Assembly: GCF_048403405.1 (NCBI RefSeq)
Contig: NZ_CP183129.1
Direction: 5' to 3' (one strand)
DNA: 64,000 nucleotides
From: Escherichia coli
Lineage (GTDB): Bacteria; Pseudomonadota; Gammaproteobacteria; Enterobacterales; Enterobacteriaceae
Shown here: in pieces, positions 13,599 through 17,200 of the stretch
Position numbering within the stretch: the stretch's first letter is position 1
Layout: each line of letters opens with the position of its first letter
The notes under the pieces: generated by a model
The model's input: only the letters and a program-made list of their open reading frames with translations
The model's database searches: none
Told to the model about the DNA's origin: nothing
Program-made: the position numbers and the translations under genes

Positions 13599-14228
13599 AT
13601 GACAGGTAAGAAGCGTTCTGCCAGCTCCAGCCGCTGGCTTCAGGAACACTTTAGCGATAAATATGTTCAACAGGCACAGAAAAAGGGGTTACGTTCCCGT
13701 GCCTGGTTTAAACTTGATGAAATACAGCAAAGTGACAAACTCTTTAAACCGGGAATGACGGTTGTCGACCTTGGTGCTGCGCCGGGTGGTTGGTCACAAT
13801 ATGTGGTCACCCAAATTGGCGGCAAAGGCCGTATCATCGCTTGCGATCTTTTACCTATGGATCCTATCGTTGGTGTGGACTTTCTTCAGGGCGATTTTCG
13901 TGATGAACTGGTGATGAAAGCACTGCTGGAGCGCGTTGGCGACAGCAAAGTCCAGGTTGTCATGTCCGATATGGCACCAAACATGAGCGGAACACCGGCG
14001 GTGGATATCCCCCGTGCCATGTATCTGGTGGAACTGGCGCTAGAAATGTGTCGTGATGTATTAGCGCCAGGTGGCAGTTTTGTAGTGAAGGTGTTCCAGG
14101 GCGAAGGTTTCGATGAGTATCTAAGGGAAATTCGCTCCCTGTTTACGAAGGTCAAAGTTCGTAAGCCGGACTCTTCTCGCGCACGTTCGCGGGAAGTGTA
14201 TATTGTAGCGACCGGGCGTAAACCCTAA
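13599..14228 (+). CDS. rlmE: 23S rRNA (U2552) 2'-O-methyltransferase RlmE (FtsJ/RrmJ)
   Basis: 209-aa ORF with SAM-binding motif [13 protein letters not shown]. Confidence 0.96.
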
Positions 14229-14327
14229 CCGGGAGATTTCAGACGAAAGTTTGAAAGATGCTGGATATAGAGTATCCTGACGCTGTTTTTAACACAGTTG
14301 TAATAAGAGGTTAATCCCTTGAGTGAC

Positions 14328-16262
14328 ATGGCGAAAAACCTAATACTCTGGCTGGTCATTGCCGTTGTGCTGATGTCAGTATTCCAGAGCTTTGGGCCCA
14401 GCGAGTCTAATGGCCGTAAGGTGGATTACTCTACCTTCCTACAAGAGGTCAATAACGACCAGGTTCGTGAAGCGCGTATCAACGGACGTGAAATCAACGT
14501 TACCAAGAAAGATAGTAACCGTTATACCACTTACATTCCGGTTCAGGATCCGAAATTACTGGATAACCTGTTGACCAAGAACGTCAAGGTTGTCGGTGAA
14601 CCGCCTGAAGAACCAAGCCTGCTGGCTTCTATCTTCATCTCCTGGTTCCCGATGCTGTTGCTGATTGGTGTCTGGATCTTCTTCATGCGTCAAATGCAGG
14701 GCGGCGGTGGCAAAGGTGCCATGTCGTTTGGTAAGAGCAAAGCGCGCATGCTGACGGAAGATCAGATCAAAACGACCTTTGCTGACGTTGCGGGCTGCGA
14801 CGAAGCAAAAGAAGAAGTTGCTGAACTGGTTGAGTATCTGCGCGAGCCGAGCCGCTTCCAGAAACTCGGCGGTAAGATCCCGAAAGGCGTCCTGATGGTC
14901 GGTCCTCCGGGTACCGGTAAAACGCTGCTGGCGAAAGCGATTGCAGGCGAAGCGAAAGTTCCGTTCTTTACTATCTCCGGTTCTGACTTCGTCGAAATGT
15001 TCGTCGGTGTGGGTGCATCCCGTGTTCGTGACATGTTCGAACAGGCGAAGAAAGCGGCACCGTGTATCATCTTTATCGATGAAATCGACGCCGTAGGCCG
15101 CCAGCGTGGCGCAGGCCTGGGCGGTGGTCACGATGAACGTGAACAGACTCTGAACCAGATGCTGGTTGAGATGGATGGCTTCGAAGGTAACGAAGGTATC
15201 ATCGTTATCGCCGCGACTAACCGTCCGGACGTTCTTGACCCGGCGCTGCTGCGTCCTGGCCGTTTCGACCGTCAGGTTGTGGTTGGCTTGCCAGATGTTC
15301 GCGGTCGTGAGCAGATCCTGAAAGTTCACATGCGTCGCGTACCATTGGCACCCGATATCGACGCGGCAATCATTGCCCGTGGTACTCCTGGTTTCTCCGG
15401 TGCTGACCTGGCGAACCTGGTGAACGAAGCGGCACTGTTCGCTGCTCGTGGCAACAAACGCGTTGTGTCGATGGTTGAGTTCGAGAAAGCGAAAGACAAA
15501 ATCATGATGGGTGCGGAACGTCGCTCCATGGTGATGACGGAAGCGCAGAAAGAATCGACGGCTTACCACGAAGCGGGTCACGCGATTATCGGTCGCCTGG
15601 TGCCGGAACACGATCCGGTGCACAAAGTGACGATTATCCCACGCGGTCGTGCGCTGGGTGTAACTTTCTTCTTGCCTGAGGGCGACGCAATCAGCGCCAG
15701 CCGTCAGAAACTGGAAAGCCAGATTTCTACGCTGTACGGTGGTCGTCTGGCAGAAGAGATCATCTACGGGCCGGAACATGTTTCTACCGGTGCGTCCAAC
15801 GATATTAAAGTTGCGACCAACCTGGCACGTAACATGGTGACTCAGTGGGGCTTCTCTGAGAAATTGGGGCCACTGCTGTACGCGGAAGAAGAAGGTGAAG
15901 TGTTCCTCGGCCGTAGCGTAGCGAAAGCGAAACATATGTCTGATGAAACTGCACGTATCATCGACCAGGAAGTGAAAGCACTGATTGAGCGTAACTATAA
16001 TCGTGCGCGTCAGCTTCTGACCGACAATATGGATATTCTGCATGCGATGAAAGATGCTCTCATGAAATATGAGACTATCGACGCACCGCAGATTGATGAC
16101 CTGATGGCACGTCGCGATGTACGTCCGCCAGCGGGCTGGGAAGAACCAGGCGCTTCTAACAATTCTGGCGACAATGGTAGTCCAAAGGCTCCTCGTCCGG
16201 TTGATGAACCGCGTACGCCGAACCCGGGTAACACCATGTCAGAGCAGTTAGGCGACAAATAA
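14328..16262 (+). CDS. ftsH: ATP-dependent zinc metalloprotease FtsH (HflB)
   Basis: 644 aa from ATG 14328 ([19 protein letters not shown]...), AAA Walker A GPPGTGKT, zinc site HEAGHA; the ORF-track start at 14319 is an in-frame TTG 3 codons upstream. Confidence 0.96.
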
Positions 16263-16293
16263 GTTCCCGCATCAGATGACTGTATTTGTACCG

Positions 16294-16325
16294 AAAACCC
16301 CGGGGCGTGCTCCGGGGTTTTTTCT
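16294..16325 (+). terminator. Intrinsic terminator after ftsH
   Basis: CCCCGGGG-CGTGCT-CCGGGG hairpin followed by TTTTTTT. Confidence 0.7.
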
Positions 16326-16351
16326 TATCAATTCATACCAGGGATAACACC

Positions 16352-17200
16352 ATGAAACTCTTTGCCCAGGGCACTTCACTGGACCTTAGCCATCCTCACG
16401 TAATGGGGATCCTCAACGTCACGCCTGATTCCTTTTCGGATGGCGGCACGCATAACTCGCTGATAGATGCGGTGAAACATGCGAATCTGATGATCAACGC
16501 TGGCGCGACGATCATTGACGTTGGTGGCGAGTCCACACGCCCGGGGGCGGCGGAAGTTAGCGTTGAAGAAGAGTTGCAACGTGTTATTCCTGTGGTTGAG
16601 GCAATTGCTCAACGCTTCGAAGTCTGGATCTCGGTCGATACATCCAAACCAGAAGTCATCCGTGAGTCAGCGAAAGTTGGCGCTCACATTATTAACGATA
16701 TTCGCTCCCTTTCCGAACCAGGCGCTCTGGAGGCTGCTGCAGAAACCGGTTTGCCGGTTTGCCTGATGCATATGCAGGGAAATCCAAAGACCATGCAGGA
16801 AGCCCCGAAGTATGACGATGTCTTTGCGGAAGTGAATCGCTATTTTATTGAGCAAATAGCACGTTGCGAGCAGGCGGGTATCGCAAAAGAGAAATTGTTG
16901 CTCGACCCCGGATTCGGTTTCGGTAAAAATCTCTCCCATAACTATTCATTACTGGCGCGCCTGGCTGAATTTCACCATTTCAACCTGCCGCTGTTGGTGG
17001 GTATGTCACGAAAATCGATGATTGGGCAGCTGCTGAACGTGGGGCCGTCCGAGCGTCTGAGCGGTAGTCTGGCTTGTGCGGTCATTGCCGCTATGCAAGG
17101 CGCGCATATCATTCGTGTTCATGACGTCAAAGAAACCGTAGAAGCGATGCGGGTGGTGGAAGCCACTCTGTCTGCAAAGGAAAACAAACGCTATGAGTAA
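16352..17200 (+). CDS. folP: Dihydropteroate synthase FolP
   Basis: 282 aa from ATG 16352 ([32 protein letters not shown]...); ORF-track start 16286 is an upstream extension. Confidence 0.96.

Follow-up and report, generated by a model that had tools for sequence, protein, structure and literature searches.

The translation start of ftsH in Escherichia coli raises the question of which of two in-frame codons, a TTG or the ATG three codons downstream, initiates the protein. In the window, by which we mean the whole stretch of 64,000 nucleotides of E. coli contig NZ_CP183129.1 that was analyzed here, the reading frame concerned (positions 14319 to 16262) unambiguously encodes FtsH, an ATP-dependent zinc metalloprotease, and it stands in the E. 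coli chromosomal gene order dacB-greA-yhbY-rlmE-ftsH-folP-glmM. Its product scored 1509.6 bits against the NCBIfam equivalog NF008004 (cutoff, 1008), with residues 4 to 647 aligned, and 892.5 bits against TIGR01241 (cutoff, 600). The Pfam domains follow in the order PF06480 (FtsH_ext; residues 8 to 96), PF00004 (AAA; 191 to 323), PF17862 (AAA_lid_3; 346 to 390), and PF01434 (Peptidase_M41; 404 to 594). Counted from the TTG, the lysine of the Walker A motif GPPGTGKT is residue 201 and the zinc-binding motif HEAGH starts at His417, and it is only with this count that the window agrees with the H417 and K201 of the literature. An earlier note on this DNA had called the start ambiguous and the ATG canonical. 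The ambiguity is one of database annotation, and the biology itself is not ambiguous; likewise, the ATG is canonical as an annotation convention, whereas the FtsH literature counts residues from the TTG.

The ftsH initiation region, read directly, is ...gtaaTAAGAGGTTAATCCCTTGAGTGACATGGCG..., and the junction between rlmE and ftsH runs ...GTAA-TAAGAGGTTAATCCC-TTG-AGT-GAC-ATG-GCG-AAA-AAC.... Since an in-frame TAA closes the frame at 14304 to 14306, the TTG is the first possible ftsH start, and the list of open reading frames opens the gene there (14319..16262, 647 amino acids), with the MSDMAKNL N terminus that the earlier note had taken from it. The positions given in that note for the TTG, the ATG, and AAGAGG, as well as the two spacings, are all exact on the sequence: AAGAGG (14305 to 14310) is separated from the TTG by 8 nt (14311 to 14318) and from the ATG by 17 nt, and when the motif is extended to AAGAGGT (14305 to 14311), the distances are 7 to 8 nt and 16 to 17 nt, respectively. 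As a sequence complementary to the 3' end of 16S rRNA and located about 5 to 10 nt before a start codon, AAGAGGT qualifies as a Shine-Dalgarno (SD) sequence for the TTG. The duplex with the anti-SD sequence at functional spacing reaches about -6.5 to -7.0 kcal/mol for the TTG and -2.7 kcal/mol for the ATG. The proposal that SD spacing favors the TTG is borne out by this geometry, by the duplex energies, and by the published initiation profiling considered below. The mere presence of a TTG near an ATG carries little weight, because roughly 13% of genes would by chance have an in-frame NTG no more than three codons from their start (3 codons x 3/64). The coordinates of the features are collected in Table 1.

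Table 1. Features of the ftsH start region and the upstream gene, with positions in the window
Feature	Positions	Strand	Evidence or remark
rlmE (ftsJ)	13599..14228	+	Gene upstream of ftsH; 90-nt spacer before the TTG; no overlap
ftsH translation initiation region	14285..14362	+	Near-invariant in E. coli
In-frame TAA stop	14304..14306	+	Upstream bound of the ftsH reading frame (sequence read, ORF list)
Shine-Dalgarno sequence AAGAGGT	14305..14311	+	Core GAGGT at 14307-14311; AAGAGG at 14305-14310
TTG (UUG), very probably the main start of ftsH translation and first codon of the 647-aa protein	14319..14321	+	Published TetRP and lacZ fusions; homologous start in 75/80 species
Full ftsH CDS when started at the TTG (647 codons and stop)	14319..16262	+	ORF list; MSDMAKNL... 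N terminus
Codons 2 and 3, AGT (14322-14324) and GAC (14325-14327), Ser2 and Asp3, translated	14322..14327	+	Mostly synonymous cross-species variation; lysine-2 rescue of K6A
ATG, database start; read as internal Met4, with very minor use as a second start at most	14328..14330	+	17 nt from the SD sequence; TetRP signal about 1-2% of that at the TTG

Two other arrangements were considered for this region. An RNA hairpin pulling the SD sequence toward the ATG was rejected, as the predicted fold of positions 14260 to 14370 (-22.9 kcal/mol) does not depart from the mean of shuffled sequences (-23.6 kcal/mol; z = 0.2) and the pairing of the SD sequence with AACCU in the minimum-energy fold is weak and is not kept in Vibrio. 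Stop-start coupling between rlmE and ftsH was ruled out, the rlmE stop codon (14226 to 14228) standing 90 nt before the TTG.

The TTG start of ftsH was already known from the literature of 1998 to 2016, and its absence from annotation is a persistent error rather than a discovery made here. The codon in the window is the same as that of the published ftsH/hflB UUG start (Wang 1998, J Bacteriol 180:1929; Akiyama 1999, Biochemistry 38:11693; Nakahigashi 2016). Initiation-site ribosome profiling, which the earlier note had proposed as a check, has been published in the form of tetracycline-arrested ribosome profiling (TetRP), which mapped initiating E. coli ribosomes (Nakahigashi 2016, DNA Res 23:193, PMC4909307). 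Table S2 of that study enters ftsH as "TTG -9, new site," counted from the annotated ATG, with signals in three samples of 138.4, 156.5, and 143.5 at the TTG and 1.15, 1.77, and 5.16 at the annotated ATG; the entry gives no N-terminal peptide for ftsH. The same paper reports that in ftsH-lacZ fusions carrying both codons, loss of the TTG cut beta-galactosidase more than loss of the ATG. It states that the UUG start of ftsH "had been previously reported," crediting Wang 1998 and Akiyama 1999, that this start was missing from the 2006 and 2014 GenBank records, and that only 81 UUG starts were annotated in the E. coli genome before it appeared (PMC4909307). In a second initiation-profiling study, which used retapamulin (Meydan 2019 preprint), ftsH is absent from the main text. 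The TTG/ATG ratios derived from the published TetRP values for ftsH are 129, 113, and 47 for one growth condition, which places the TTG above the ATG by 47- to 129-fold. The peptide strings MSDMAKN and SDMAKNL found no match in a literature search. The abstract of the 1998 work is said to describe confirmation of the ftsH UUG initiator by N-terminal sequencing, and the 1999 work reportedly places self-cleavage of FtsH at Met640-Ser641 in the 647-residue numbering; the N-terminal sequencing evidence for the TTG attributed to these two reports is second-hand. Met640 in this numbering is consistent with a count from the TTG in the window.

The published numbering with three additional residues matches the window at H417, K201, and Met640, and no biological difference separates the two. 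A recent study adopts it explicitly, numbering FtsH "as in Wang et al." by adding three residues and designating the catalytic mutant H417Y (Kalinin 2026, PMC13039401). In the plasmid-borne constructs described there, the K6A mutant of FtsH was rescued by a lysine at position 2, 4, or 5. The rescue by lysine 2 means that the AGT codon (14322 to 14324) is translated in these plasmid constructs, and the rescue by lysine 4 means that the ATG codon is dispensable in them. The study also reports that the charge of the cytoplasmic tail affects membrane insertion of FtsH and that M4A lowered expression, an effect that its authors ascribe to stability, whereas M4K was tolerated (PMC13039401).

The start region was compared across 80 FtsH loci, one per species and mostly from Proteobacteria, using the invariant tryptophan of transmembrane helix 1 as the anchor, so that the E. 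coli TTG lies 10 codons before it (W-10) and the ATG lies 7 codons before it (W-7). An ATG, GTG, or TTG occurs at the homologous upstream position in 75 of the 80 loci, comprising 60 with a start at W-10, 14 from clades with a one-codon indel that have it at W-11 or W-9, and L058, whose W-10 start was assigned by eye. Of these 75 loci, 26 carry a non-start codon at W-7 (TTA, CTT, CTC, CTG, TTT, AAT, and others), as in L015 (TTG-AAT-GAT-TTA), L040 (ATG-AAC-GAC-CTC), and L066 (TTG-AAC-GAT-CTG). Among the 60 W-10 loci, the W-7 codon is ATG in 32 and encodes Leu, Phe, Asn, Val, Ile, or Thr in 25. A start at W-7 alone was found in only 2 of the 80 loci (L055 and L074; MAGs, about positions 1190 to 1203). 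L074 reads TTA-AGC-GAG-ATG, its TTA apparently reflecting a TTG-to-TTA loss of an ancestral start, and L055 carries GGT at -9 and an AGGT of its own that precedes the ATG by 6 nt; from these two loci, it follows that the ftsH start can migrate to Met4 once the upstream codon is lost.

Ribosome-binding and coding features around the upstream codon agree with this distribution of starts. In 34 of the 36 sequences that contain both candidates, the window included, it is the upstream codon that has the more stable best duplex with the anti-SD sequence at a spacing of 4 to 10 nt (mean, -6.96 kcal/mol upstream and -3.25 kcal/mol downstream). The species are related, and both the locus counts and the Wilcoxon p-value therefore look statistically stronger than they are. 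In the 60 species, GAGG peaks at -12 to -9 as counted from the upstream start, with GG at -10/-9. The second codon in the 60 W-10 loci is AAC in 35, AAT in 14, AGT in 8, and AGC in 2, and the third is GAT in 22, GAC in 15, AAT in 8, and AAC in 4; since these loci were chosen for having a start at W-10, conservation of codon 1 is a circular finding, but the observations on the SD sequence, on codons 2 and 3, and on W-7 are not. Within codons 2 and 3, the third positions vary most and the changes are mostly synonymous, a pattern that reads as a coding signature. The arrangement of an SD sequence followed by NTG and A(A/G)Y-GAY is kept across Proteobacteria, and the FtsH N terminus follows a pan-proteobacterial pattern, M-(N/S)-(D/N/P)-x-x-(K/R)-N-h-h-h-W, with the tryptophan as residue 11, which the E. 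coli protein fits only when it is read from the TTG. At the level of sequence comparison, the 80 species thus lend additional support to the published TTG start.

Every RefSeq/PGAP genome opened, including K-12 assemblies, CFSAN061763, O121 GTVSS-020, EC332, and NC_000913.3, has the ftsH coding sequence starting at the ATG, with the AGT and GAC codons left in the 5' untranslated region; in NC_000913.3, b3178 (ftsH) is 1935 nt long and encodes 644 amino acids. On the minus strand of that record, the TTG begins at 3326944 and the ATG at 3326935. The UniProt name FTSH_ECOLI belongs to the 644-residue sequence, and the 647-residue sequence is found in public collections under older names. The 644-residue form is also the one deposited in PDB entries 7WI4, 7VHP, 7WI3, and 9CZ2, and the NCBIfam equivalog NF008004 is exactly 644 positions long, which corresponds to the ATG-start form. 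RefSeq, UniProt, and PDB have inherited the 644-residue annotation of FtsH, and this model now reinforces it; its 644 positions, anchored at residue 4, explain the uniform ATG call of PGAP and mean that this call will persist. In the 90% identity clusters that hold the 644- and 647-residue FtsH sequences, members annotated as RlmE, FolP, and GlmM were also found, which looks like an artefact of the collection, e.g., fused or mis-split gene calls. The downstream gene folP shows the same kind of mismatch between ORF list and annotation as ftsH: its ORF entry (16286 to 17200) opens at TTG 16286 and gives 304 amino acids (MYRKPRGV...), and RefSeq has 282 amino acids from MKLFAQG, starting at ATG 16352.

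These data bear on two alternatives to initiation at the TTG. If the ATG at 14328 were the sole start, FtsH would have 644 residues and TTG-AGT-GAC would be an untranslated spacer or a standby site. Such a reading accords with the usage of all of the reference resources (RefSeq/PGAP, NC_000913.3, UniProt, PDB, and NF008004), with the intrinsically greater strength of ATG as an initiator, and with L055 and L074, which have their start solely at the ATG position; however, it leaves the ATG with a 17-nt gap to the SD sequence that no predicted RNA structure bridges (fold z-score, 0.2) and with a TetRP signal far below that at the TTG. Nor does it fit the 26 species in which no start codon exists at that position, the coding type of third-position variation in codons 2 and 3, or the protein-level effect of lysine 2 and the tolerance of lysine 4 in the constructs of Kalinin 2026. 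Sole initiation at the ATG is therefore highly improbable.

The other alternative is dual initiation, with 647- and 644-residue proteoforms that are both meaningful and whose ratio may depend on conditions such as heat shock or the level of IF3. The description of the effect of TTG loss as "greater" in the lacZ experiments leaves room for a reduction of expression by mutation of the ATG as well, and the TetRP signal at the ATG is small but nonzero (1.1 to 5.2), although it amounts to about 1 to 2% of that at the TTG under the single condition tested. The retention of ATG at W-7 in 32 of the 60 W-10 species would suit a second start, yet a range of residues (Leu, Phe, Ile, Val, and others) is accepted there in the species compared, which suits an internal residue better than a start, and no SD sequence stands at functional spacing for the ATG. 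The lowered expression of M4A could likewise be taken for the loss of a start codon, but M4K was tolerated and the effect of M4A was put down to stability by the authors (Kalinin 2026). We consider dual initiation unlikely, and the TTG at 14319 is very probably the real and principal start codon of ftsH.

Initiation at the TTG would involve pairing of the 3' end of the 16S rRNA in the 30S subunit with GAGGU/AAGAGG (14305 to 14311), which would set the P site on the UUG 7 to 8 nt downstream, where fMet-tRNA would initiate. The product would be the 647-residue FtsH beginning (f)Met-Ser-Asp-Met-Ala-Lys-Asn-Leu, and the ATG at 14328 would be read as the internal Met4 in the short cytoplasmic tail that precedes transmembrane helix 1, the SD sequence being too distant for it to compete. 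Met1 is probably removed by methionine aminopeptidase, as suggested by the serine at residue 2 and the known specificity of this enzyme. With the TTG as the start, the reference FtsH (the P0AAI3-type 644-residue sequence of UniProt, RefSeq WP_001107467.1, and PDB 7WI4 and 7VHP) would be three residues short at the N terminus, the true N-terminal peptide would escape proteomic searches against the 644-residue reference, and FtsH constructs cloned from the ATG would not have the native cytoplasmic tail. As a result of the three-residue gap, two residue numberings stand side by side in the literature, e.g., H417 and H414 or K201 and K198.

Reassignment of an annotated ATG to a nearby in-frame UUG is not peculiar to ftsH; in the TetRP study, potA, rfaQ, yedI, basS, surE, and other genes were revised in the same way, and several of the reassigned UUG starts were confirmed by lacZ fusion (PMC4909307). 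The case of ftsH differs in that it has earlier independent reports and is still uncorrected in current RefSeq. The upstream start of ftsH also retains a weak codon across species, being TTG in 51, ATG in 13, and GTG in 11 of 75 species (68% TTG), and the unambiguous starts of the adjacent rlmE in the same loci are ATG in 35, GTG in 9, and TTG in 1 (n = 45; about 2% TTG). The ftsH TTG start spans Gamma-, Beta-, and Deltaproteobacteria and one "Marinimicrobia" MAG. Third codon positions near the ftsH start are close to saturation, and mutation has therefore had ample time to change the start codon. We tentatively suggest, from these codon comparisons, that the weak UUG might be an ancient trait kept by selection, throttling FtsH dosage or sensing the status of IF3 or the initiator tRNA, and we regard this proposal as possible though somewhat doubtful. 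Throttling of dosage is plausible because the FtsH level sets the stability of sigma-32 and LpxC. No description of conservation of the ftsH UUG start was found in the literature searched, which does not in itself establish novelty; if the suggestion is true, a conserved weak start on an essential, dosage-sensitive protease would be a small and testable point on expression control.

A partial parallel is offered by infC, which encodes IF3, starts with AUU, and is autoregulated, IF3 discriminating against noncanonical start codons. Both are essential genes with a conserved start other than AUG, and by analogy, ftsH expression could be tied to IF3 activity. In contrast to the AUU of infC, however, the UUG of ftsH is a standard, though weaker, bacterial start codon, and feedback by FtsH is not claimed. 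By this analogy, a link to IF3 is a possible rationale for the retention of UUG in ftsH.

Within E. coli, the initiation region is almost free of variation. A 331-nt stretch over the site matched at least 95% identity in 5425 of 5426 complete E. coli genomes and at least 99% identity in 5423, and 5421 of 5425 shared the 78 nt at 14285 to 14362 without a single difference. Of the four variants of the 78-nt region, the one inspected proved to be a synonymous GCG-to-GCA change at 14333; no mutated TTG or SD sequence was present among the 5421 identical genomes and this one variant. Very few differences separate the initiation region from its counterparts in Citrobacter, Yersinia, Photorhabdus, and "Ca. 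Pantoea edessiphila." Unlike the bare coincidence of a TTG and an ATG, this conservation is not due to chance.

The spacer between rlmE and ftsH showed further features. The part preceding the SD sequence, GCTGTTT(G)TTAACACAGTTGTAATA (14280 to 14318 in the window; about positions 1150 to 1200 in L003 to L006), hardly differs among E. coli, Yersinia, Photorhabdus, and the symbiont "Ca. Pantoea edessiphila," and the last three have either lost the remainder of the spacer or diverged in it. The conserved stretch exceeds what an SD sequence needs and could contain a promoter, a 5' untranslated region element, or a processing element. A sigma-70-like match lies at 14251 to 14278 (TTGAAA, a 16-nt spacer, and TATCCT; 9 of 12 positions), from which ftsH would have a leader roughly 35 nt long. 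The site was identified solely by its agreement with the consensus, and one such site was found where about one is expected by chance. In L083 (E. coli O121 GTVSS-020), a 4-bp deletion of GACC, equivalent to window positions 14210 to 14213, affects the last codons of rlmE, and the RlmE protein called by PGAP (WP_409518448.1) is frameshifted and carries a C-terminal extension reaching about 50 nt into the spacer, with the ftsH initiation region intact.
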